Source of the DNA: a virus
Taxonomy: Duplodnaviria; Caudoviricetes
Reading direction: 5' to 3' (one strand)
Length of the DNA stretch: 50,846 nt
IMG/VR virus record: IMGVR_UViG_3300018063_000007
Span: 1-50,846 of that record
Part shown: positions 7,732-39,253 of the stretch, in pieces
How positions within the stretch are numbered: position 1 is the first letter of the stretch
Layout: each line of letters opens with the position of its first letter
The notes under the pieces: generated by a model
Seen by the model: only the letters and a program-made list of their open reading frames with translations
The model's database searches: none
Told to the model about the DNA's origin: nothing
Translations under genes and position numbers: made by a program

Positions 7732-8279
7732 TGAGCGACACACGTAGTATGTACGACGAAGGCACAGGCGACATTCAGTACCCACGTCCTCTTATCCATG
7801 AGGACTCGCCAGGCAGGGAACATCTAGAGTTGGTAAGCTTGACGATGACTGACGAGCCTCGTGGTAACGGTAACGAGAGTGCGAAGGGCGTTTTCTATGA
7901 TGCGCGTTTCCGCGTCGTGACCCCCGATGGTGGCAACAACGGATACGAGTTCACTCAGCGTGTTTACGCCGACGCGCGTATCGGTAAGAACGACGACGGG
8001 ACGCCGAAGAAGGCGTCGGTGTGGTTCTCCCGAGGGCGCCCGTTCCTTAACGGGTTGGTTGCTGCGACTAAGGGCCAAAAGGCCATCGGCTCGTTTTGGA
8101 CCGTCTGTAAAGGTGGTGGGCTCAAAGCGTACGTTGATCGGGCTCTCACCCTTACAGGTCAACGATTCAAGGCCAGCGTGGGTGTAGAGAAGGGAGACTT
8201 GATCGACAAGAATGACAAGGACGGTGGTAGGTATCGAGATAAGCAAATCGTCAAGGGCTTCTACGCGCTGACCGCGTAG
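7731..8279 (+). CDS. Putative single-stranded DNA-binding protein
   Basis: Beta-rich 182 aa after the Sak4-like gene; LTGQRFKASVGV...YRDKQIVKGF pattern. Confidence 0.6.
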   Translation: MSDTRSMYDEGTGDIQYPRPLIHEDSPGREHLELVSLTMTDEPRGNGNESAKGVFYDARFRVVTPDGGNNGYEFTQRVYADARIGKNDDGTPKKASVWFSRGRPFLNGLVAATKGQKAIGSFWTVCKGGGLKAYVDRALTLTGQRFKASVGVEKGDLIDKNDKDGGRYRDKQIVKGFYALTA

Positions 8280-8285
8280 ACTAAC

Positions 8286-8377
8286 CTAGCGTGTGCAGTT
8301 TCTTCGTCGCGTGGCCTAGCTGCACACGTTAGACTAAGGGGAGGGAGCGTCCCCGAGCCCACCAGTGGGTGGGCTCG
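8286..8377 (+). other. Three consecutive stem-loops between SSB and polymerase piece 1
   Basis: 8286-8300 pairs with 8318-8332 (15 bp, 2 G-U); GGGGA/TCCCC; CGAGCCCACC/GGTGGGCTCG. Confidence 0.65.
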
Positions 8378-8401
8378 AAGCAGTTCCCTCACGCACACAT
8401 A

Positions 8402-9121
8402 ATGGAACTCACAGCCCAAAACGTCATGGCGTGGCGGTTGCAGTTCACACGCTGTGATCTCTGCCCATTTCAACGTCGGCGCAAAGTCGGCTTCGCTGGT
8501 GACATCAACGCCGACATCATCTTGTGGGGCGAGGCGCCTGGCGCTGATGAAGCCTCCTACCGTGCCGGCCAGCAACTCTATGGCGAGCCGTTCGTCGGCC
8601 GTGCTGGTTGGGCGTTGAAGGAGCACATTTTGCTAGAAGCTGGCCCGAAGTTCGCGGTGCGTGAAGGCAAGGGCCACCGGCTGACGTGCTTTGTCGGTAA
8701 CACCATCATGTGCAACCCTCCAAAGAACAAGATCACTGGCACACTCGCCCGCAAGGCCCGTGCGGCATGCACGCCCTCCGGTCAGTTGCTATTAGCTGCA
8801 CTAATACGCAAAAAACGCCGTACACTGGTCCCTATGGGCGATGTGGCCCTCGAAGCCACAAAGGGCGTGACTGGCATTGGCAAGCACCGAGGGCGTGTCA
8901 ACGTCTTTAACGCACCGACGATCATGTTTGAGCATGAACAACTCAAGATCCTGCTCCGAGGTGTGAAGCCACCTACGGAGTGGAAAGGCCACAAGAACGC
9001 TGAGGGCAAGAAGGTGCTGGGCCACGAGGGCATCGTGCGATTGCTGTTGGCGTGGAATAGACGTATGATGAAGCCTAGGAAGCTACCGAAGGTGAAACGA
9101 ACGAAGCAGGAGACTCCATGA
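8402..9121 (+). CDS. DNA polymerase piece 1: N-terminal part of family 4 uracil-DNA glycosylase-like (SPO1-type) domain
   Basis: CDLC, GEAPG, PFVGRAG, MCNPPKN, AAC, PMGDVA, GKHRG; lacks the C-terminal HPA motif; start could be 8369. Confidence 0.85.
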   Translation: MELTAQNVMAWRLQFTRCDLCPFQRRRKVGFAGDINADIILWGEAPGADEASYRAGQQLYGEPFVGRAGWALKEHILLEAGPKFAVREGKGHRLTCFVGNTIMCNPPKNKITGTLARKARAACTPSGQLLLAALIRKKRRTLVPMGDVALEATKGVTGIGKHRGRVNVFNAPTIMFEHEQLKILLRGVKPPTEWKGHKNAEGKKVLGHEGIVRLLLAWNRRMMKPRKLPKVKRTKQETP

Positions 9122-9915
9122 CTATTGGTGAGTTCTTGAAGAAGTTTGAGCGGAAGGTGAAAGCAAAAAAGGTAAAGTGGCAGGCAACCGTAAAAATACG
9201 GGCACAATTAGCTGTGGGCGCCTCTACAGCGTTATGGCCTATGTGTCCAATTGAGTTTGTAGTAGGCCGTAGGAATTACCTTATTGGAGCAGAAAAACTT
9301 GGGTTGACAATGGCACAAACTCGTGCAATTGCTGACGCCGCCGATTTTGCTGACTCCGAGGCAAGCAAGCGCCTCCGTATACAGCTCATCAAGATCATAA
9401 AGCCTTACCTTGTTGCCCTACTTCTCGTAATGCTGACGAGCGCTGACTTGTGGGCCGTCCCGGCGAGCTGTAAGTGTTTTACTGAGAATGGCTTTTGGTC
9501 TTGTACCTGTCCTGATGGGTGGATATTGGAACCTACACCCGCGCTAACCTGTGTCCCTACCGTCCCAATCGTCCGCATCAAGCCTGGCTACGACCACCCG
9601 CTCCTCGTGGCGCCGGGCGAGACGGGGACGTTCCTGCTCGCTATCAAGAACCGGGACCAAGCGGGCTGCCCAGCGCACACGTTCGAGATTGGCGCGGCAG
9701 CGGCGTACGGCGCGGGTACAGGGGCGATTGAGGCCGTGCAGGACGCCACGCTCACGATCGAGCCACGCGAAACGAAGTACACGCGGGTGTACATCACGGT
9801 AGTGCCGGAGAGTGAGGTTGGGCCGGCGATCGTTGTGAGCCCGTATGTGCGGAGGACGGATGAGAGTCGACTGTATGGGCAGGCGGTTGGGCGGATTGTG
9901 GTGGTGGAGCCGTGA
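9118..9915 (+). CDS. Fusion of basic family copy 3 with a signal-peptide-bearing Cys/Ig-like domain
   Basis: Residues 1-95 resemble 5830/6104; then KPYLVALLLVMLTSADLWA; C-terminal domain resembles 26398..26826. Confidence 0.7.
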   Translation: MTIGEFLKKFERKVKAKKVKWQATVKIRAQLAVGASTALWPMCPIEFVVGRRNYLIGAEKLGLTMAQTRAIADAADFADSEASKRLRIQLIKIIKPYLVALLLVMLTSADLWAVPASCKCFTENGFWSCTCPDGWILEPTPALTCVPTVPIVRIKPGYDHPLLVAPGETGTFLLAIKNRDQAGCPAHTFEIGAAAAYGAGTGAIEAVQDATLTIEPRETKYTRVYITVVPESEVGPAIVVSPYVRRTDESRLYGQAVGRIVVVEP

Positions 9916-10184
9916 GCGTACTTAAAAGTAACAGGTCGAAACGTAAAACGCGCTGCTCTGAAGGCTGCCCACATAGTAGTAGGAGAGTTGACGCGTGGAT
10001 TAGGAGAGAGTTGACTAGGGTTCAAGTTACACGTCCTGGCTTTAGTTATCGTTACTGGCTTGCTCTTACATTACTTTTAGAAACACGCGAGGCAGCTAGA
10101 TCATTGCTTATGAAGGTGTGTCAGCCACCGTACACTACTTGTACTTACCATGGGGAGTTAGCTCGTGCCCTCGAAAATGAATAA
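9912..10184 (+). CDS. Hypothetical protein, similar to 10623..10886
   Basis: DAWIRRELT...YWLALTLL versus DEWITAELA...YHRALTLL. Confidence 0.55.
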   Translation: MSVLKSNRSKRKTRCSEGCPHSSRRVDAWIRRELTRVQVTRPGFSYRYWLALTLLLETREAARSLLMKVCQPPYTTCTYHGELARALENE

Positions 10185-10413
10185 GGGTAAGTTTCCGGCG
10201 TTTCCGTTACCACGCGTGTCAATACCAACTGGCTACGTGGAATGGAGTGGACAAGAGGGCATGTCCCTCCGCGCGTACATTGCGACACATGCGTTAGCGG
10301 GGCTACTCGCCGCCCCTGATGTTCATGGGCGCCCTGAGTGGTTTGTCCATAGTGCTGTAGTGTATGCCGACGCTCTCCTCGCCGAGCTAGCGAAGGAGCC
10401 GACCGATGGCTGA
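10177..10413 (+). CDS. Small phage protein with GMSLRxYxA...ADALL motif
   Basis: PAFP...GMSLRAYIATHALAGLLA...YADALLAEL, a common phage motif. Confidence 0.75.
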   Translation: MNKGKFPAFPLPRVSIPTGYVEWSGQEGMSLRAYIATHALAGLLAAPDVHGRPEWFVHSAVVYADALLAELAKEPTDG

Positions 10414-10630
10414 CCTCCGCCTGCTGACGGTCCTCCTCGTGCTGGCACTCGCCGGGTGTAATGGCGGCATGGTACTTCCTGAACGGCCTCAAGAGTGCCA
10501 CCTTCTTGTAAACGGGAAGCCTGTGGGCATTTCGTGTCAATGGTCCGGTGGGCGCTGCATGAGCGACACATACGTAACAGTACAGGTAGGAGACGAAATC
10601 CATATCGTATGTAGGAGAGCCGATGGCTGA
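10406..10630 (+). CDS. Putative lipoprotein
   Basis: Signal LLTVLLVLALAG-C with LAGC lipobox; AAGGAG SD; four further Cys. Confidence 0.7.
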   Translation: MADLRLLTVLLVLALAGCNGGMVLPERPQECHLLVNGKPVGISCQWSGGRCMSDTYVTVQVGDEIHIVCRRADG

Positions 10631-10886
10631 CCCCACGCTGGACGAATGGATCACGGCCGAGCTGGCGCAGTGCGAGGGGGCTAAATTGCCGCTGGGCTCT
10701 TACCATCGCGCCCTCACCCTGCTACAACAGCACCGCGCGGCGCTGCGGAAGCTATTCGCGCTTGTTGAAGACGGGACGCTCGTACGTGACATCTCTCGGG
10801 ACGACTTACGAGGTTGGGCGATGCGCCAAATACCACTTGTGAAAACGTTAGCTGAGGTCAGCGTCGTGCTTGCAGAGAAGCCATGA
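10623..10886 (+). CDS. Hypothetical protein
   Basis: AGGAG SD; coupled to neighbours. Confidence 0.65.
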   Translation: MADPTLDEWITAELAQCEGAKLPLGSYHRALTLLQQHRAALRKLFALVEDGTLVRDISRDDLRGWAMRQIPLVKTLAEVSVVLAEKP

Positions 10887-11248
10887 GCAAAGCCAACCCC
10901 AACGTGACGCACGCCATAGCCGATGTAATGAGCAGTTTGCTCAGTCGTGCCAACCGTGCAGAGGACCGCATCGCCCACCTCGAAGCCGACAAGGCACGGC
11001 TCACCACCGTAATACGAGAGCTACATCGCGTAGACTCACTTGGCTCAGACATCCCCAATGCTGGGCTGTACTGTCGTGCAATGGAGAAGGCTATTGATGC
11101 TCTCGCTGGCGTAGGCGACGTGCTCACGCCGGAGGAGCGCTCCCTCGTAACGAAGTGTGACCGCTGGCATGGGGGACCGCCGATATTCTACGCACTCCTT
11201 GCCATCCTCGACCGCATCGCCCCTGCACCAAAGGAGCCTGCGGCGTGA
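10883..11248 (+). CDS. Hypothetical coiled-coil protein
   Basis: ATGA overlap; RAEDRIAHLEADKARL. Confidence 0.6.
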   Translation: MSKANPNVTHAIADVMSSLLSRANRAEDRIAHLEADKARLTTVIRELHRVDSLGSDIPNAGLYCRAMEKAIDALAGVGDVLTPEERSLVTKCDRWHGGPPIFYALLAILDRIAPAPKEPAA

Positions 11249-11272
11249 CCGCTCGCTACTTTCAGATGACTG

Positions 11273-12115
11273 ATGACTGACCGTGCGTGGACGATGGGAG
11301 AGGTGTACGACCTGCTCGCGCTAGCGTGGGCGGTGCAGGAGCGTGAGGTTCGACGTTACAGTCAACTCCCGATAATGTTCCAACTATCGAACACCTGTGG
11401 AGACTGCGGTCGCGAGGGCACGTTGCACGAGTATTACTGCCTTACCGCGCCGGCCCGCCGCATCCTCGCCCCGATCCTGTTTCCTGAGAGGGAGGGAGTA
11501 TGAGTGACTGGGTAGAGAGAGGTCTAGCGGCCATGATTGGATTCTTAGCTTTCGTTGGGCTACTTACTGTGGCTGCTATCGGGGGGCAACTGGTACATCG
11601 TTGCTCTTGTGCGTGCGTACCATGACCATCACCCTCATCTTTACCCTTCCTGACGAGCAAGCCGAGTACGACGACGCGCGGAACGGCACGAAGTGGAAGT
11701 GTGTCGTCGAGGCGCTCCGCGAGCACCTACGTGCGAAGCTGAAGTACAGCGACATACCTACCAAGCAACGGGTGATTGTTGCCGAATTGCTCACCACACT
11801 CCACACCATCTGCCAGGACTGGGACGTGTCGTTGTGAGCGCAGTCGCGCCCGGCCACACCAATTCCCTCGTTGTCTACCGCTGCGCCGGCTGTGGGAAGG
11901 ACATTGAGCGCCGCCGGGTGAAGGTCAAGAAAACCCGCATCGGCTACGAGCGCACGATGCGCGGGTTCAAGACCATCTACACCTACACCCTCTATCACGG
12001 CTGCAAGGAGAAGCGCTGCGCCCCCGTCATCGCGTGGGATCGGCGCAAACAGAAACCGCGCTACGACAAGCGCTACAACAAAGAGGAGAACGCTCATGAG
12101 TATGCAAGTACCTAG
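11273..12115 (+). other. Run of small hypothetical genes (11273..11503, 11622..11837, 11834..12115)
   Basis: Short coupled + strand ORFs, some with CxxC. Confidence 0.55.
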
Positions 12116-12425
12116 CGGAATTGTTGCGACGGCAGTGATGATGGCTGTGCTGACCGTACCCGCGTCGGCGGAGTGGGCATACGCACCACCCTTCCCGCTC
12201 GTCTCCGGCACGGTGGTGTGCCCTGCTCGCAACGACTCCGCCATCCCCCTGACGGTATGGATCGAGTGCGTGGAGGCGACGAACGATGGGACGGTAGAGA
12301 GCCCAAAGGTGTGCGTTGACCTCCTCCCCAACACGGCCTGCGCGATCACGAGTACGGACTCGCGGTGTCGGCGGTGCAAGGCGTCGTGGGATGGGGGCGT
12401 GGGGCGCGTGAGCATCGCGGAGTAG
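12096..12425 (+). CDS. Putative secreted Cys-rich protein
   Basis: AGGAG SD; hydrophobic IVATAVMMAVLTVP then ASA cleavage site; 6 Cys. Confidence 0.6.
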   Translation: MSMQVPSGIVATAVMMAVLTVPASAEWAYAPPFPLVSGTVVCPARNDSAIPLTVWIECVEATNDGTVESPKVCVDLLPNTACAITSTDSRCRRCKASWDGGVGRVSIAE

Positions 12426-12434
12426 GAGGACAGC

Positions 12435-13175
12435 GTGAGCACCTGGACAATCGAAGTCGTCACCCGTGAGGCGTGGCTCGCCCGCATCGCCAAGCACGAG
12501 CGCCGCTGCCGGAAGTGTAAGCGGAGGGTGGTGTACAACGCCGGGACGACGACACATCCGCTGCCGCCGATCTGCTTGCGGTACATTGGGATGCTGTGGG
12601 GCCTACGGGCGTGCGAGTTAGCGAGGGTGGCGTGAGCCCAGTGTTAAGTGAGGCTCGGAGGTTGTTTATAATGAATCGGGCTCAACAGATGATATTAGCT
12701 GGTACAGCGCGAAAGTGCCCCTCAGACGGTTTGCTGTGTGATCGTTGTAATGATTTAGTCGAGGGTGCTTGCGGTATGATAAATGATGCCAATGCCGACT
12801 TCAACAGCATTCTTTGGCATGATAGCATGGCCGACAGCCACACCGACCTCACTATGTGGCTGTTGAAGCATTGGAGCGAGAGCATGCAAGTCCTCGCGGA
12901 ACGGCTGATGCGAGAGTACGACATTAGCAAGAAGGAGTCTTAGCCATGTGCGAATGCTGCCGCCTCAGCGGTGTCGACTACATCTACCGTGGCTTGCTCA
13001 TCTGTACGCTGTGTGTCAAACGGTGGTGCGTGAGGCAGACGGAGTTGAGGAAGTTGTGAGCGCCTGTTCATATTTTGCCGACATCGGCGCCGGTATCATG
13101 CTTTCGGGCATAGGGGCGCTCATCTGGCTCATCGTGGGCAGCTTGTTGTACCACGGGTGGATCAATCGTGAGTGA
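12435..13175 (+). other. Small hypothetical genes (12435..12635 zinc ribbon, 12632..12943, a membrane ORF ending at 13175)
   Basis: AGGAGG SD before 12435; GTGA overlaps. Confidence 0.55.
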
Positions 13176-13178
13176 GCC

Positions 13179-13277
13179 TAGCGGGTGTTTCCAGCATCGA
13201 GTTCGTGACGATGGGGCGTGGTTTCACGAGATGCGCGCTGTCAACGCAGTAGCGCTGGCGACGCCCAGCACCCGCTA
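13179..13277 (+). ncRNA. Putative structured cis-acting RNA (three-way junction with pseudoknot) before polymerase piece 2
   Basis: Hand-derived pairings: TAGCGGGTGT/GCACCCGCTA, GCATC/GATGC, TCGTGA/TCACGA, GCGCT/AGCGC; loop GGGCGT can pair with ACGCCC. Confidence 0.5.
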
Positions 13278-13284
13278 AATCTTT

Positions 13285-14106
13285 ATGAGTGAACTCCCCA
13301 GCTACATCGTCCCTTCGTACCACCCAGCCTACCTCCTTCGTAACCAAACTCTCACGAAGCCGACGATCGAGGATTTTCGCAAGGCCGCACGTATTCACGA
13401 GACAGGCCCGACACGCATTCCTATAGCTGAGCGAGAAAATGGTAGTATGGCTGACGCAGCGCTATTCCCGCTGCTTGATGATGTAGAAGGTTTCTTCAAA
13501 GGTTGGGGCCGTACTCATACCAGAATGTCCATCGACTTCGAAGCCACTATGACCGGCATCCCCTGGTGCGTGGGCTTCTGGCCGTGTGATAGTGAAGACC
13601 AAGTGCTTACCACTCAGGGTATCTGCATCCCCTTCCACAAACAGGGCGGCGAGAACTATTGGTCTCCACGCGACCACGAAGCGACCATGTGGCTGTTGAA
13701 GGAGTACCTCGAAGATCCTACACAGCCCAAGGTCGGGCAAAATTGGGTTGGTTATGACGGAGGTTACAACGATCATGGCTGGGAAGAAAGCGACCACTCG
13801 CTCGCATACCGAGCTTTCGGCATACGGGTTAGAGGCTTGGTACTCGACACGATGGTTGCACACCATGCGGTCTCTCCTGAGCTACCACATTCTCTTGCAT
13901 TCCAATCCTCTCTCTGTACTGACCTTGGTGCATACAAGCTGGAAGTCCACGCCACCTCATCGGTCGACGACGAAAAGGAAGACGACGCGCAGAAGGGCAT
14001 CCAAAACGTGAAGGACGTAGACGATAGGGTGTTACGGGGCTACTGCTTGAGGGACTGTTTTGCTGCTGGGCTGAGCGCGTGCGAGTTAGAGCGGGTGATG
14101 GCGTGA
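13285..14106 (+). CDS. DNA polymerase piece 2: UDG C-terminal motif plus 3'-5' exonuclease domain
   Basis: IVPSYHPAYLLRN (UDG motif B); ExoI SIDFEA; ExoII GQNWVGYD; DTMVAHH; ExoIII YCLRD. Confidence 0.88.
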   Translation: MSELPSYIVPSYHPAYLLRNQTLTKPTIEDFRKAARIHETGPTRIPIAERENGSMADAALFPLLDDVEGFFKGWGRTHTRMSIDFEATMTGIPWCVGFWPCDSEDQVLTTQGICIPFHKQGGENYWSPRDHEATMWLLKEYLEDPTQPKVGQNWVGYDGGYNDHGWEESDHSLAYRAFGIRVRGLVLDTMVAHHAVSPELPHSLAFQSSLCTDLGAYKLEVHATSSVDDEKEDDAQKGIQNVKDVDDRVLRGYCLRDCFAAGLSACELERVMA

Positions 14107-15081
14107 AGCGTTTCGTAAACCTCGGTGAGCAGATTTGCCCTGGGGCTCCGTGCTTCGCGTGGTTTGATACTGTTGTATCCCAATTCGAGGAACACAATGG
14201 AGCACAAATATGGGATAGCTGGGGTGAGTTCAAAGCTGATTATGTGGGTGGTGACTTAAAGCGGTACTTAGGGCTATTCATGCGGTCAGATTTTGGTGGC
14301 ATTGTTGGCGCTCATGATACCACTATACTAACGGACGAGTAGTGGCTACCTTGACCGACCACGAAGGCCTTTGGTATTGTAAGCACTGTGGCGCGTTGAA
14401 CGTAGCCGTGTGCGATTGTGATTTCTGTTTAGTATGCTGCCAAGTAATATGTATAGCACATGATGGGCACGAGTCGTGACCACCTACACCGTCTGCTCTA
14501 CCTGTGGCACACCACACCTGTTCGACCCTTCGTGGGACGTAGAACAATGCCCAGACTGCTACTACGCCGACAACCACGAGCCGCTAGACGACACAAGTGA
14601 AAATGACTGGCTTGACTTTTTAGAAGACAGTTATCTTGATGATAGCCCCTGGGATTTAGACGAACATGATGAGGACTGAAGCTGCTGAGCTTGAAGACCT
14701 CCGCACCCAGAAATCCATCTGGCAAGGGTGCTACACCCGCCAGGTCGTGCGCCAGCTCAACACGTTTCACCTCGCCACCTCGGCGGTCGTGGCCCTTATA
14801 GCTATGCGCGACCAGCTCCCCACGCTCACCGAAGCAACCACCCACGAGCTATACCACCGGCTCGACGTGGCGATCGAGCAGTTGTCGTCGGCGTTGAAGG
14901 TGGCGGAGGGTGAGTTGTGACGGTAGAGAATGTAAACTGGCACTTTACGTATACAGAAGACAAACGTGCTGTTGTAACAGAGGTTGGTGGGCGAGTTAAG
15001 TGGTACGTATATCGATGTTATGGTCTTCAAGGCTACATTTGGGTAGCTGCTAGCATACTTGAGCGTGGCGCATGGGCCTAG
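14103..15081 (+). other. Island of small genes between polymerase pieces 2 and 3 (14103..14342, 14476..14679, 14666..14920, 14917..15081)
   Basis: Coupled short ORFs, partly AT-richer; 14917..15081 hand-translated. Confidence 0.6.
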
Positions 15082-16352
15082 GCGTCAGGCACATCCACGA
15101 CATCGGCCTCCCACTCCTCCCAATCGTCCAGCAAGTGGGCATGCAGGGCCTTCCCTTCGACGCCCAGCGCCGCGAATCTCTGTTGATGGACTTCATCGAA
15201 CCTGAGCTAGCCAACCTCGCGGGCTCGCTTGCCGATTGTGGCATCACCGACGCCAAATCCACCAAGAAGCTGGGCGCTGCACTGGCCGCGCTAGGGGTGC
15301 CGCTGGAGAAACACACGAAGGGCGGTGAGCAATTCGCTGTCGACCTCGAAGTCCTCCGGCGTAAGCACCATGAGTTTAACGAGGCCGACGATCGCGTTCG
15401 CTTTCCCTTTCTCCCCACCCTCATACGCTTCAAGCAGTTTGAGAAGGCACGTGCGAACCTGCACAGCATGGTCTTGTGCAAGGACGGTCGCCTGCGCTGT
15501 CGGTTGAACTCGCTGGGGACGGAGACGGGTCGTTATTCGAGCGCGGGTCTTGGATGGTGCCCGCGTTGCCACCAACCGGATCATGGCACGAACCTCCAAA
15601 ACATTGCTAAGAACAACGCTGAGATAGGACTGAACCTCCGAGACGTTATTGTAGCACGCCCAGGGTACACACTACTAGAGTTCGACTACTCGATGCTTGA
15701 GCTAAGGATCTTGGCATACGTAGCGAACGTCAAACTGCTCATCGAGCGCCTCGAACGGGGCGACGACATCCACAGCGAACATGAACGCGACCTGTTCGGC
15801 ACGGTGGGCGAAAGTCGCACCCTCGCCAAGAACTTCGGTTTTGCCGCCATCTATGGTGGTAAGGCCAAAGCTATTCAGATGGCCCTCGCCAAGAAGGGCA
15901 TTTTCCTCGAACTCGCTGAGATTGAGCGTCTTCGCTCGATCATGCTCTACGAACGCTACCCCGAGATTATCTCGTGGCAGATCGACGCTGAACGTCAGAT
16001 CAACGCGCTGAAGCTGGCGAAGCTTCCTGTGGCGGTGCGTACGGTGTTCGGCTCCGCGCGAGTCTTACTCGGCTACGAGCCCCTCAAGGAGTGGCTCAGC
16101 ACTCGCATCCAGGGCACGGCTGGGTGGATTATGTCGTTTAACCTCCTACGGATGCGCAAGCAAACGCGGGGCTACCTATGTACGCAGATCCACGACGCCT
16201 TCTTAGCCGAGGTTCCCGCAAACATGATGATGCAGTATACAGCGGAGATGGTGGAGTTGATGGAACGTAAAGTCTGGATGCATGACCGCTTCGTGCGCTT
16301 TCCCGTCGATGTCAGTTGTGGTAGACGGTGGAGCGAGATGACGAAGTGCTGA
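15072..16352 (+). CDS. DNA polymerase piece 3: family A polymerase domain
   Basis: TETGRYSS, NLQNI, motif A EFDYSMLELRILA, motif B RTLAKNFGFAAIYG, IQGTA, motif C QIHDA. Confidence 0.93.
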   Translation: MGLGVRHIHDIGLPLLPIVQQVGMQGLPFDAQRRESLLMDFIEPELANLAGSLADCGITDAKSTKKLGAALAALGVPLEKHTKGGEQFAVDLEVLRRKHHEFNEADDRVRFPFLPTLIRFKQFEKARANLHSMVLCKDGRLRCRLNSLGTETGRYSSAGLGWCPRCHQPDHGTNLQNIAKNNAEIGLNLRDVIVARPGYTLLEFDYSMLELRILAYVANVKLLIERLERGDDIHSEHERDLFGTVGESRTLAKNFGFAAIYGGKAKAIQMALAKKGIFLELAEIERLRSIMLYERYPEIISWQIDAERQINALKLAKLPVAVRTVFGSARVLLGYEPLKEWLSTRIQGTAGWIMSFNLLRMRKQTRGYLCTQIHDAFLAEVPANMMMQYTAEMVELMERKVWMHDRFVRFPVDVSCGRRWSEMTKC

Positions 16353-17320
16353 AGGCCCAATCGCTTGGCTGGCTCATCGACCACCCGCCACCGGAGGTAA
16401 AATCACTATGGGGCAACGCATTGCTTCCACGCCGGGGTCTTACGCTTTTACATTCAGCCTCGAAACAGGGGAAATCTATGTTAGCATTGAACCTTGCTTT
16501 AGCTGGCGCGGCTGGATTGCCTCACTACTTAGGTTTCCCTATAGAATCTACGTTTACGACCTTCGTACTTCAAGGCGAAATCCACTTACGGGGAGTGTGG
16601 GAACGTGCCTCCCAAATGATTCGGACTATGGGCGCGACCCTACCGAGCGAGGCCATTAACCGGGTGATCGTGAACGAGGAGCGTACCCTGCGATTGGCGC
16701 AGTCGGAGATGTGGGATGAGTTCCGAGAGGTAGTGCGGTGGCTTCGGCCCGATTTGGTAATTCTCGACCCCTTCGCCCACGTGCTCACCGAGGATGAGAA
16801 CTCGAACGTCATCGTGGGCAAGATCCTCGAAAAGATCGCGGAGTTGCGTGACGACCCTGGATGCGCTATCCTTCTCGTACACCATGACGGCAAGCCCAGC
16901 GAAAGCACGTCGTCGCGCCAACCTCGCCAGCGCTCGCGTGGAGCAGATCGCCTTAACGCAGATCCAGACAGCATTCTCTCGTTGGTGCCGCTCCGCCGTC
17001 CCAAGGGCTCAGGCCCGCTCAGCCGTCTTGAGCCTGTCTCTCGATACGGGCGAAGTGTGGATTCTTTCGACGTGGCCCTCAACGAAGACACGCTCTGGTT
17101 TGAGCGTGCGACGCAAGAGGACACGGAAGACTTTGACATCGCCATCGCCTCGTTGGTTCCCCCTGGAGGCTGCTCCGAGCAAGAATTACTCAGAGCCTTT
17201 AACACTGTCAAAGGATATAGTGACGGGCGGTTACGTCAAGCTCGATCAGCTTTCGCAGAAGCCGTTGGGCAGGGTATTTTGCAGGTAGAGCATGGAGTCG
17301 TGAGAAAAAAGGAGGAGTGA
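16328..17320 (+). CDS. RepA-like (AAA_25) replicative helicase
   Basis: Walker A HSASKQGKS, Walker B LVILDPF, DENSN, ILLVHHDGK, RGA. Confidence 0.85.
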   Translation: MERDDEVLKAQSLGWLIDHPPPEVKSLWGNALLPRRGLTLLHSASKQGKSMLALNLALAGAAGLPHYLGFPIESTFTTFVLQGEIHLRGVWERASQMIRTMGATLPSEAINRVIVNEERTLRLAQSEMWDEFREVVRWLRPDLVILDPFAHVLTEDENSNVIVGKILEKIAELRDDPGCAILLVHHDGKPSESTSSRQPRQRSRGADRLNADPDSILSLVPLRRPKGSGPLSRLEPVSRYGRSVDSFDVALNEDTLWFERATQEDTEDFDIAIASLVPPGGCSEQELLRAFNTVKGYSDGRLRQARSAFAEAVGQGILQVEHGVVRKKEE

Positions 17321-17556
17321 TGCCATACATCCCTCAAGACGCTCGTAAACAGCTTGACAGCGGTGACATCCAAGGGGGAGGTTCCCTCTGTTACCTCATC
17401 ACCATGTTGTGTAAAGGCTACCTCCTTCAACGTGGCGAGAGCTACGACCATTATGGTGAGGTACGCCACGCCCTTGCTACGACGTGGGATGAGTACGTGC
17501 TACCGCGCTTTCGCACCTACGAGGCCAAGAAGCGCGAAACCAATGGTGAAGTGTGA
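17317..17556 (+). CDS. Small conserved phage protein (MPYI...GxLxYLIT...YExKKxxxNGxV family)
   Basis: Motif pattern; GGAGG SD. Confidence 0.7.
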   Translation: MMPYIPQDARKQLDSGDIQGGGSLCYLITMLCKGYLLQRGESYDHYGEVRHALATTWDEYVLPRFRTYEAKKRETNGEV

Positions 17557-38491: not shown

Positions 38492-39253
38492 CTACGCGAT
38501 GAAATCTTCCAAAAATCCATCAACCGTTCGTGTATCCTTCACCTGTCGCGGCCCGGCGGCCCTCGTCACCATGTCCAGCTTGTCTGAATAGTCGGCGCCA
38601 GCGATGTTTACTTCGTCGGCGATCCCCTGCTTCCGATAACAGTCGAGCACCACATAGCTAATCACGGCGTCGAGCATGATGTCGTTGAAACCCGAGCCTT
38701 CGAAGGTATCGCGGCCAATGAGGGTGCGTGGGCCTTGGATGTAATCGAGGCGCACGTTCTGAGGTTCAGAGAGTTGGGGCGTAGGCCGCACGAGCAAGCG
38801 CGGGCCAGCTTCGCGCCAGATGACTTCCATGACGTAACAGCCACCGGTGTCGGGCGCGAGTTCGTGTTCGAGCTGGCGGAAGTCGCTGTGGGTGATGTCA
38901 CGCATCACGAAACGCGCAATAGGGTCGGCCAACGGATCGGGCACGACCATCTCGAACGCCAACAGTTCGTAGAAGTCGGGTGGCAACTCCATCTCGCTTA
39001 CGTTGGCGGTGAGTTTGAGCGCCGCAGGGTTATATTGGCGCCCGTAGATGCCAAATGGGGCGTCGCTCGACACGATTGAGCGCACGAACCAGTTCTCCTT
39101 GGCCTCGCGCGCTCGTTGCCACACCTTACGCATCCCCCGGTTCATGGACTCGATGATGAATCGGGTGGGCCAGAGGTTGTTGTTGGGGTCGCTGTCTTCG
39201 TCGATCTCGTCGCGCACCCGGCGTACAAGCGTGGAGACGGTCATGTTCGTCAT
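38492..39253 (-). CDS. Head-tail adaptor (tubular A-like)
   Basis: LVRRVRDEIDE...W...ESMN, LPPDF, LLVRPTP; ATGA overlap at 39253. Confidence 0.7.
   Translation of the reverse strand: MTNMTVSTLVRRVRDEIDEDSDPNNNLWPTRFIIESMNRGMRKVWQRAREAKENWFVRSIVSSDAPFGIYGRQYNPAALKLTANVSEMELPPDFYELLAFEMVVPDPLADPIARFVMRDITHSDFRQLEHELAPDTGGCYVMEVIWREAGPRLLVRPTPQLSEPQNVRLDYIQGPRTLIGRDTFEGSGFNDIMLDAVISYVVLDCYRKQGIADEVNIAGADYSDKLDMVTRAAGPRQVKDTRTVDGFLEDFIA

Follow-up and report, generated by a model that had tools for sequence, protein, structure and literature searches.

A predicted long-range pairing at a tightly packed gene junction before the exonuclease piece of a split phage polymerase gene

The window (the whole stretch of DNA analyzed, 50,846 nucleotides of the Caudoviricetes virus record IMGVR_UViG_3300018063_000007) encodes a family-4 UDG-like domain, a 3'-5' exonuclease domain and a family A polymerase domain on three separate ORFs (Table 1). 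The exonuclease domain was recognized by phrog_17 (3.9e-12) and, below the cut-off, by PF01612 (8.9e-04). The three pieces are collinear with single-frame relatives, and the distant relatives L002, L003 and L004 have one frame of 828-926 aa. The same three domains occur in UDG-PolA phage polymerases, considered together with the split exo/pol PolA of T7-like cyanophages, in the available part of Czernecki et al. (2023, PMC10201439). Unlike the systems described in that part, the gene is in three pieces here and in four distinct related phages, its first cut falls inside the UDG-like fold, with piece 2 starting mid-fold, and the gaps between the pieces are variable slots of 0.5-4.2 kb. The gap before piece 2 of the window measures 4.16 kb and holds about 14 co-oriented ORFs, many with SDs. 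In one relative (L008), an HNH_3 endonuclease ORF lies directly upstream of the exonuclease piece and overlaps it, which recalls nrdA/mobE of Aeromonas phage Aeh1, a gene in pieces reportedly created by a free-standing homing endonuclease. However, no endonuclease was detected among the scanned gap ORFs of the window, all of which lie outside 9912-11625 (eleven with Pfam and eight with PHROGs).

Table 1. Features of the split polymerase gene and of the junction before its middle piece.
Feature	Position	Strand	Remarks
First polymerase piece	8369..9121	+	UDG-like domain up to the cut (PF03167, 6e-08), then tail of about 73 aa
37-codon Cys-rich (zinc-ribbon-like) ORF	12946..13059	+	AGGAG SD (-8.3); codon score weakly positive; no Pfam match
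39-codon hydrophobic (membrane-like) peptide ORF	13056..13175	+	strong coding score (14.8/15.6); SD -6.3
ORF36, 36 codons	13168..13278	+	SD-like GGGTGGA, -5.9; codon score 4.0
5' arm of 11-bp long-range stem	13179..13189	+	pairing probability 0.91-1.0
Three-way junction of first reading	13191..13258	+	complementary on paper, disfavoured by energy model
GGGCGT, partner of 13261-13266	13214..13219	+	P about 0.95; duplex -10.0 kcal/mol
ACGCCC, partner of 13214-13219	13261..13266	+	predicted fold
3' arm of 11-bp long-range stem	13267..13277	+	at -18..-8 relative to the exonuclease ATG; its last two bases are the TA of the ORF36 TAA
Middle polymerase piece	13285..14106	+	last strand and motif of UDG-like fold, then 3'-5' exonuclease domain; SD-less, buried start
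Third polymerase piece	15072..16352	+	family A polymerase domain (PF00476, 2.1e-34)

Immediately before the middle piece lies a coupled chain of short ORFs, of which the Cys-rich ORF is the first member. The GTG of the hydrophobic ORF, a start that we chose inside ORF 12948..13175, overlaps the preceding stop (GTGA), and the GTG of ORF36 overlaps the stop of the gene before it (GTGAGTGA). ORF36, already noted in the first-pass annotation and confirmed in the ORF list, ends at a TAA (13276-13278) 6 nt 5' of the exonuclease ATG at 13285 and in the same frame, the stop-to-start spacing being +6 nt here, as against -4 and -8 nt between the short ORFs. The frame of ORF36 scores best of its three frames by codon usage, and its score is attained in 0/262 and 2/262 cases when chunks of known genes are read off-frame, and in 5.65% of 2000 shuffles, which is borderline. 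The gap is also spanned by an open frame in 83% of 2000 shuffles, so ORF36 is not a proven gene. Homologues of ORF36 were absent from the relatives and, bar three weak matches, from 1.84 billion protein representatives. These matches (E 7e-5 to 5e-4) are to repeat units of long proteins, in two of which Pfam recognizes domains of cell-wall-hydrolase type (NlpC/P60, CHAP) and of Ig/Fn3 type (30-36% identity over 33 aa), and were judged to be due to chance or inflated by repeats. ORF36 also has no self-match among the representatives, which suggests that it was left uncalled by gene callers or filtered out. Its layout, SD and codon score indicate that ORF36 is probably translated, as an orphan peptide. 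Further upstream, ORF 12596-12943 has no relatives among viral contigs.

The first-pass annotation had drawn a compact pseudoknotted RNA across this junction, in which a closing stem (13179-13188/13268-13277) surrounds a linker-free three-way junction and a loop pairs with the tail. The closing stem is present and lengthens to 11 bp with one G-U pair, and the helices assigned to the junction, namely CCA/TGG (13191-93/13256-58), GCATC..TCGTGA/TCACGA.GATGC and GCGCT/AGCGC, are all complementary (0 non-pairing positions in a scripted check). As a fold, however, the junction can be drawn but is disfavoured, with -33.6 kcal/mol vs. -47.8 kcal/mol for the MFE structure and helix pairing probabilities of 0-0.05. 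The loop GGGCGT is indeed complementary to ACGCCC, but the energy model stacks this pairing as a nested helix on the closing stem (P about 1.0) and not as a pseudoknot. The 11-bp stem and this helix are the only robust pairings of the predicted fold. When the 6-bp helix is credited to the pseudoknot version with its energy as a duplex (-10 kcal/mol), about -44 kcal/mol is reached before any pseudoknot penalty, which is near the MFE, so energy alone is insufficient to exclude a pseudoknot. The three-way-junction pseudoknot is most likely a by-eye pattern in G+C-rich sequence.

As originally described, the exonuclease ATG lies 7 nt 3' of the end of the closing stem and has no SD. Its anti-SD pairing is the weakest among 52 putative starts (+1.2 kcal/mol vs. 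a median of -5.8; -5.9 for the ORF36 GTG), and its -18..-1 region is predicted to be less accessible than that of any other of these starts (0.15 unpaired; 0.01 for the start codon). Two features of termination-reinitiation are thereby found, a downstream gene without an efficient start of its own (by in silico measures only) and co-oriented ORFs with a very short spacer (TAA-N6-ATG). Were ORF36 not translated, the nearest upstream stop would lie 109 nt off, and a stop-start distance of ~20 nt already nearly abolishes reinitiation according to the available part of Huber et al. (2023, PMC10666635). Stop-codon read-through fusing ORF36 to the exonuclease piece was also considered and was rejected, as the proteins of the relatives have no such extension and begin at this conserved strand as well.

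Upstream sequence is available for four distinct relatives, and in 4/4 the exonuclease start overlaps a stop codon that belongs to a preceding, non-homologous ORF (ATGA in L005 and L007, GTGA in L009, and an ATG 11 nt before TAG in L008). The sequence 5' of the exonuclease piece is unrelated in 4/4 relatives, is not alignable and has no common structure (folding z-scores of -2.06, +0.82, -0.36 and -1.07), and the junction before the third piece of the window is unstructured (z = +0.53). No alignable counterpart of the element was detected in 14 related loci or 2 whole related records, where the neighbouring protein of the closest relatives compared has no more than 46-50% identity. The suggestion that the element is tied to the split gene is contradicted by the unrelated DNA that relatives with the same split carry at this place, and by the unstructured third-piece junction.

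On balance, this stretch is probably not a dedicated structured RNA but a densely packed gene junction of ordinary type, with termination-reinitiation coupling, in an early/replication operon of the phage. Ribosomes would be loaded on ORF36 through its own SD-like site, would open the stem while translating, and on ending at the TAA would re-initiate 6 nt on at the SD-less ATG. Because the ATG and the 18 nt before it would be buried by the 11-bp stem and the 6-bp helix, independent initiation at this ATG should be poor, and we infer that the exonuclease piece depends on ORF36 translation. We regard the stem pairing as incidental; at most, it would passively reinforce the coupling. From the earlier idea of a ribosome landing or re-initiation element, re-initiation is retained as plain translational coupling (TAA-N6-ATG, with overlaps in 4/4 relatives), for which no special RNA device is needed. 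Termination-reinitiation coupling at overlapping or closely spaced co-oriented genes is said to have been described by Huber et al. in 2019 (PMC6728339). In the available parts of PMC10666635 and PMC12548453, the coupled genes resemble the present case in their co-oriented ORFs, short spacings and SD-less downstream start, and the ATGA/GTGA overlaps of our relatives fit the same pattern. The present case differs in that its upstream partner does not encode a subunit of the same enzyme but is an unconserved orphan ORF of 36 codons, and in that the case is known from sequence alone.

A structured functional RNA would be expected to have a sense-strand folding energy clearly under that of shuffled sequence, which is not seen here: the 125-nt stretch has a z-score of -1.16 (25/200 shuffles equally stable), its 150-nt context has -1.39 (14/200), and folds at least as stable as that of the element are found in 200/2029 genome windows of 125 nt. 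When the segment is cut exactly to the stem, which is a biased choice of segment, the z-score is -2.45 (4/200 shuffles as good) and the segment falls within the top ~1% of 99-nt genome windows; these two values leave room for a selected role of the helix. After correction for composition, the 99-nt fold is equalled or bettered at 29 other genome loci. The reverse strand of the trimmed segment folds even more strongly (z = -3.86, 0/200 shuffles), so the pairing is not strand-specific. Stems of at least 11 bp number 8 genome-wide, vs. 5.0 +/- 2.5 in 25 shuffles. The ends of the stem match the ORF boundaries, as the 5' arm begins 4 nt past the upstream stop and the 3' arm finishes in the ORF36 stop.

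These observations bear on a first alternative, in which the 11-bp and 6-bp helices form a selected RNA-unfolding coupling device that would keep the start closed until its 5' arm is melted by ribosomes on ORF36 or on the membrane-peptide ORF, and would also appose the upstream stop and the ATG. We consider this possible but rather unlikely. The exonuclease start, least accessible and most SD-poor of the 52, the near-certain predicted stem with ends coincident with ORF boundaries, and the trimmed z-score are in its favour, and precedents exist in MS2 coat-lysis and E. coli rpmI-rplT, where the downstream start likewise lies in a helix whose other arm is in upstream translated sequence (in the available part of PMC12548453). 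In contrast to these, the helix here is neither above chance nor conserved, and in silico it is not specific to one strand: without trimming its z-scores are ordinary, the fold of the reverse strand is at least equally good, chance alone would give about 5 such long stems in the genome, and the relatives couple by direct overlap without shared structure. In a further reading, the 17-bp composite long-range helix could be a selected 'hand-over' device, which folds out ORF36 and places the upstream membrane-peptide stop beside the SD-less ATG, so that terminating ribosomes melt the helix (unfolding coupling) or cross its base (shunt-like re-initiation, about 110 nt). This seems improbable to us; if true, the output of the middle piece would be tied to upstream translation.

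RNase III-type processing takes place between early genes in T7-like phages, and the irregular long hairpin could be such a processing site or an mRNA-stabilizing structure between early genes. The internally branched composite helix of about 17 bp, situated between genes, is consistent with this, but no similar element occurs elsewhere in the genome and the region is probably coding, which makes such a role very unlikely. About as little weight is given to a DNA-level palindrome, serving as a protein-binding or recombination site at the right edge of the variable cassette between pieces 1 and 2. Both strands do fold equally well, and the stretch is at the edge of a slot with different content in every relative; however, a search of 8200-15200, including the left edge of the slot, gave no matching repeat, no direct or inverted repeats join the stretch to the other edge of the gap, and the only places where the arm sequence comes back are the element itself and the terminal repeats, with a mismatch in each case.

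An autonomous pseudoknotted riboswitch or ribozyme, which the first-pass annotation had put forward, was evaluated by searches for known RNA classes and sequence counterparts. The whole window gave 0 Rfam matches at gathering score. With Rfam 15 at E<=10, only two noise matches were obtained in 12700-13500, both far under gathering: RF02047 (E 2, 13044-13193), whose last 26 bases coincide with the start of the element, and RF01134 (E 9.6), which is outside it. At E<=1, the sole match in 8200-15200 was an unrelated snoRNA model at 14636-14689. A single-sequence covariance model recovered only itself in the window and 14 loci (139,307 bases; next match E 0.99) and nothing in the two whole related virus records searched. 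The terminator scan, for compact G+C-rich hairpins with a loop of 3-8 and then a U-run, detected no intrinsic terminator at 13179-13290, where the stem encloses 77 nt; the promoter scan gave nothing at the element, and the tRNA/tmRNA scan found none. No match was obtained by distant blastn of 11500-17500 against the phage collection, no exact 21-mer of the element occurs in viral contigs, no exonuclease-piece relatives were found in genome contigs, and no RNA sequencing run containing the stretch is listed. An exact 21-mer match in a Pseudomonas chromosome (L016) among the genome contigs was rejected, because about 0.3 such matches are expected by chance in 596 Gb; the similarity ends at the 21-22-mer. 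On paper, the element does resemble the pseudoknotted riboswitches and small ribozymes of Rfam 15, with a compact multi-helix junction of linker-free helices, a loop-to-tail pairing just 5' of a start codon, and an energy near the MFE once the pseudoknot helix is added. It differs from them in that no covariance model matches within the element even at E<=10, the z-score of -1.16 shows no excess folding energy, the junction helices have probabilities <=0.05 and the pseudoknot is unfavoured, no conservation or homologue was found in the relatives or anywhere searched, and the stretch is inside a probable coding ORF. A riboswitch or ribozyme is thus extremely unlikely.

An intron 3' end, or another splicing or bypass signal rejoining the split UDG-like domain, would suit a piece 2 that starts mid-fold and an ORF36 in frame with it, but can practically be dismissed: no group I/II model matches, whether at gathering score (whole window) or at E<=1 (8200-15200), the 4.16-kb gap is packed with co-oriented ORFs whose counterparts in the relatives are unrelated, piece 1 has a conserved tail after the cut, and the contigs of two DNA sequencing runs (X1 and X2) show neither a variant in 8000-16500 nor a joined form without the gaps, although these runs may be the source samples and their contigs are no evidence either way.

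Control of a split replicative polymerase by a genuine new class of pseudoknotted RNA would have been notable; the pairing here is instead probably at chance level inside a small coupled ORF, and for that reason it should not count as an RNA discovery. For the split polymerase gene itself, the inter-piece slots hold unrelated cargo in every relative examined, and whichever ORF precedes the exonuclease piece of the three-gene UDG-PolA, the start of this piece always overlaps or nearly overlaps it.

Script comparison found 0 non-pairing positions among the pairings that the first-pass annotation had proposed for the 125-nt stretch upstream of the exonuclease piece, all of which are present. The closing stem exists and ends 7 nt before the ATG at 13285, but its length had to be corrected to 11 bp (13179–13189/13267–13277, one G-U). 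The 36-codon ORF running through the element (ORF36) was confirmed. In the partition function, pairing probabilities are 0.91–1.0 for the closing stem, ~0.95 for GGGCGU/ACGCCC and 0 to 0.05 for the helices of the three-way junction. The energy model nests the 6-bp GGGCGU/ACGCCC duplex, stacked on the closing stem, adds two other small hairpins and makes no use of a pseudoknot. The nested three-way junction of the annotation has −33.6 kcal/mol; together with the 6-bp duplex (−10.0 kcal/mol) it reaches ~−44 kcal/mol before any pseudoknot penalty, so the pseudoknot is energetically possible. By these modelled energies, it is compatible yet not favoured.

The stability of the stretch was compared with that of shuffled and genomic sequences. 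Its MFE is −47.8 kcal/mol vs −43.3 ± 3.9 in dinucleotide shuffles (z = −1.16, 25/200 as good), and extending the context to 150 nt gives z = −1.39 (14/200 shuffles). Of 2029 genome-wide 125-nt windows, 200 are at least as stable; when corrected for G+C, the element lies at the 5.6% level. If the segment is cut to the exact limits of the stem, a choice that introduces bias, z becomes −2.45 (4/200). Because the antisense strand of this segment folds still better (z = −3.86, 0/200), the pairing is not specific to the mRNA strand. Equal or better composition-corrected folds were found in 85 of 10,150 99-nt windows, in 29 other loci. When contiguous stems (at most one G-U, span ≤110 nt) were counted against 25 shuffles, the genome had 25 stems of at least 10 bp (17.3 ± 3.6 in shuffles) and 8 of at least 11 bp (5.0 ± 2.5), so that a single stem of this kind can be expected by chance. 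Separately, no 125-nt window of the genome folds more stably than the intergenic 8251–8375 just before piece 1 (MFE −62.1, z = −4.44, 0/200 shuffles). It forms three or four hairpins, with a 15-bp stem among them, and might represent a regulatory leader or a terminator/promoter region. GTG 8369 falls within its last hairpin, and thus an ATG near 8402 may be the true start of piece 1.

Relatives were compared at the DNA level for locus L005 (a viral contig), L006/L007, L008, L009/L010, L011 and more distant loci. The 330 nt 5' of the exonuclease piece are unrelated in every relative. When the window and 14 loci (139,307 bases) were searched with a covariance model that combined the window sequence with the annotated structure, the model recovered only its own source, the next best match having an E of 0.99 (39071–39117, − strand); two related virus records, searched in full, gave no match. 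For the 125 nt that precede the exonuclease piece in the relatives, fold z values are −2.06, +0.82, −0.36 and −1.07, and for the junction before piece 3 of the window z is +0.53. These comparisons thus show neither a homologous nor an analogous element, and no alignable counterpart in which paired base changes could be counted.

At 50,846 bases and a G+C of 55–60%, the window is a complete virus record that carries direct terminal repeats; its genes lie on the + strand to ~20 kb and on the − strand beyond; the element sits within the + strand replication block. At blastn sensitivity the window had no match in the phage collection, and ARAGORN detected no tRNA or tmRNA in it. One 21-mer recurs exactly in a Pseudomonas chromosome; this was rejected, as the similarity goes no further and lies at the level expected by chance. 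A direct repeat of 30 nt with 80% identity (12600–12629 and 14068–14097) is located at the 5' ends of two small ORFs, 12596–12943 and 14079–14342. A perfect 13-bp inverted repeat (18872–18884/18945–18957) contains AAGGAG within its 3' arm and might sequester a Shine-Dalgarno (SD) site.

Pieces of the split polymerase and ORFs preceding the exonuclease piece
Feature	Location	Strand	Remark
Piece 1, UDG-superfamily domain	8369–9121	+	PF03167, 6e-08
Cys-rich ORF	12946–13059	+	AGGAG SD
Membrane-like peptide ORF	13056–13175	+	Start at GTGA overlap
ORF36	13168–13278	+	Start at GTGAGTGA overlap; TAA 6 nt before ATG 13285
Piece 2, 3'-5' exonuclease domain	13285–14106	+	PF01612, 8.9e-04 (below cut-off); phrog_17, 3.9e-12
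Piece 3, family A polymerase domain	15072–16352	+	PF00476, 2.1e-34

In 4/4 distinct relatives with upstream sequence, the exonuclease start codon overlaps the stop of an unrelated upstream ORF (ATGA in L005 and L007, GTGA in L009, ATG 11 nt before TAG in L008), and the window follows the same stop/start logic. Anti-SD pairing of ≤−4 kcal/mol was found for 67% of 52 putative phage starts vs 38% in a set of 300 random 20-mers. The weakest value of the 52 (+1.2) indeed belongs to the exonuclease ATG, annotated as lacking an SD, and the GTG of ORF36 is at their median (−5.9). The ORF36 frame scores as coding, with a minimum log-likelihood ratio of 4.0. Only 0/262 and 2/262 off-frame chunks attain this value, 88% of in-frame known-gene chunks exceed it, and 5.65% of 2000 shuffled versions of the stretch reach it. 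The open frame alone is no evidence, since 83% of shuffles retain some open frame. Its peptide had no tblastn match in the related loci and only three weak, repeat-inflated matches, with no self-match, among 1.84 billion representatives. The weak similarity of the peptide (13168–13275) to a unit repeated in P0010 and P0011, two long proteins with NlpC/P60 and CHAP domains (30–36% over 33 aa, E ~1e-4), is probably due to chance.

The most economical explanation of the exonuclease start is ordinary translational coupling. Ribosomes would translate ORF36, terminate at its TAA (13276–78) and re-initiate at ATG 13285; expression of the exonuclease piece would then depend on ORF36, and the stems would be irrelevant. 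According to PMC10666635, termination-reinitiation needs an overlap or a very short spacer and is nearly abolished by ~20 nt, so that the 6-nt spacer fits coupling. A silent ORF36 would not fit, as the previous stop would then be 109 nt from the exonuclease ATG.

A second mode of coupling, described in the review PMC12548453, is RNA unfolding: ribosomes translating the upstream gene open a structure that covers the start of the next one. In the predicted fold, positions −18 to −1 of the exonuclease start are the least accessible of the 52 (0.15 unpaired), and positions −18 to +12 rank fifth lowest, with the start codon 0.01 unpaired. It is nevertheless rather unlikely that the 11-bp stem adds such an effect, which the fold statistics do not require and which relatives do without. 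An RNase III or stabiliser hairpin is improbable. A DNA-level palindrome at a cassette edge is quite improbable, as no repeat was found joining the element to the other edge of the first gap. The riboswitch or ribozyme of the annotation is very improbable and has no positive evidence: Rfam 15 gave no family at gathering score in the whole window, two noise matches at E ≤ 10 in 12700–13500, neither contained in the element (one, RF02047 at 13044–13193, overlaps its first 26 bases), and only a snoRNA model (14636–14689) at E ≤ 1 across both gaps (8200–15200). Therefore no intron, riboswitch or ribozyme model was obtained, and an intron or bypass signal, likewise without positive evidence, is extremely improbable. 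Among sequencing runs, no RNA run contains the element. Taken as a whole, the complementarities are real, but the status of RNA element is not supported. The stretch belongs to a series of coupled ORFs, of which it forms a short and probably translated member, and pairing of its strength occurs at ~30 other places in the genome.

The split polymerase proposed in the annotation is correct, because distant relatives carry all three parts in a single frame (L002, 828 aa; L003, 926 aa; L004, 845 aa). It is a UDG-PolA of the kind described by Czernecki et al. (2023; PMC10201439), but is in three genes. The first cut interrupts the UDG-like fold. Alignment to the fused proteins stops at residue 177 for piece 1 and begins at residue 8 for piece 2, on the strand with an HPAYLLR-type motif, and ~11 residues separate these points in the fused forms. 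Past the cut, piece 1 has a tail (~73 aa; 8900–9121, residues ~178–250) that relatives conserve, as tblastn alignments reach residue 250 in L009/L010 and residue 235 in L007, and that has no counterpart in the fused proteins; it might serve for docking during reassembly. Among 5.8 billion proteins, the exonuclease piece has seven relatives of similar length (239–271 aa, 38–50% identity), and all of these begin at one and the same conserved strand. The species genomes searched yielded no relative.

The first gap is 4.16 kb in the window, with ~14 co-oriented ORFs inside. A small ORF in this gap (10406–10630) has a lipoprotein-like N-terminus in a translation read by eye. The UDG piece lies 0.6–1.0 kb upstream of the exonuclease piece in L005, L007 and L009/L010, and is not found within 2 kb of upstream sequence in L008. 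The polymerase piece lies 0.5–2.1 kb downstream in L005, L008 and L009/L010, the second gap of the window being 0.97 kb. The UDG-PolA split is therefore old, with variable slots as its gaps. The ORF 5' of the exonuclease piece is an orphan in L005 and L009 and a 63-aa, zinc-ribbon-like one in L007. In L008 it is an HNH_3 endonuclease ORF (1623–2057, E 6.2e-07), directly upstream of the exonuclease piece and overlapping its start, and this homing-endonuclease ORF hints that the slot arose, or persists, through selfish nucleases.
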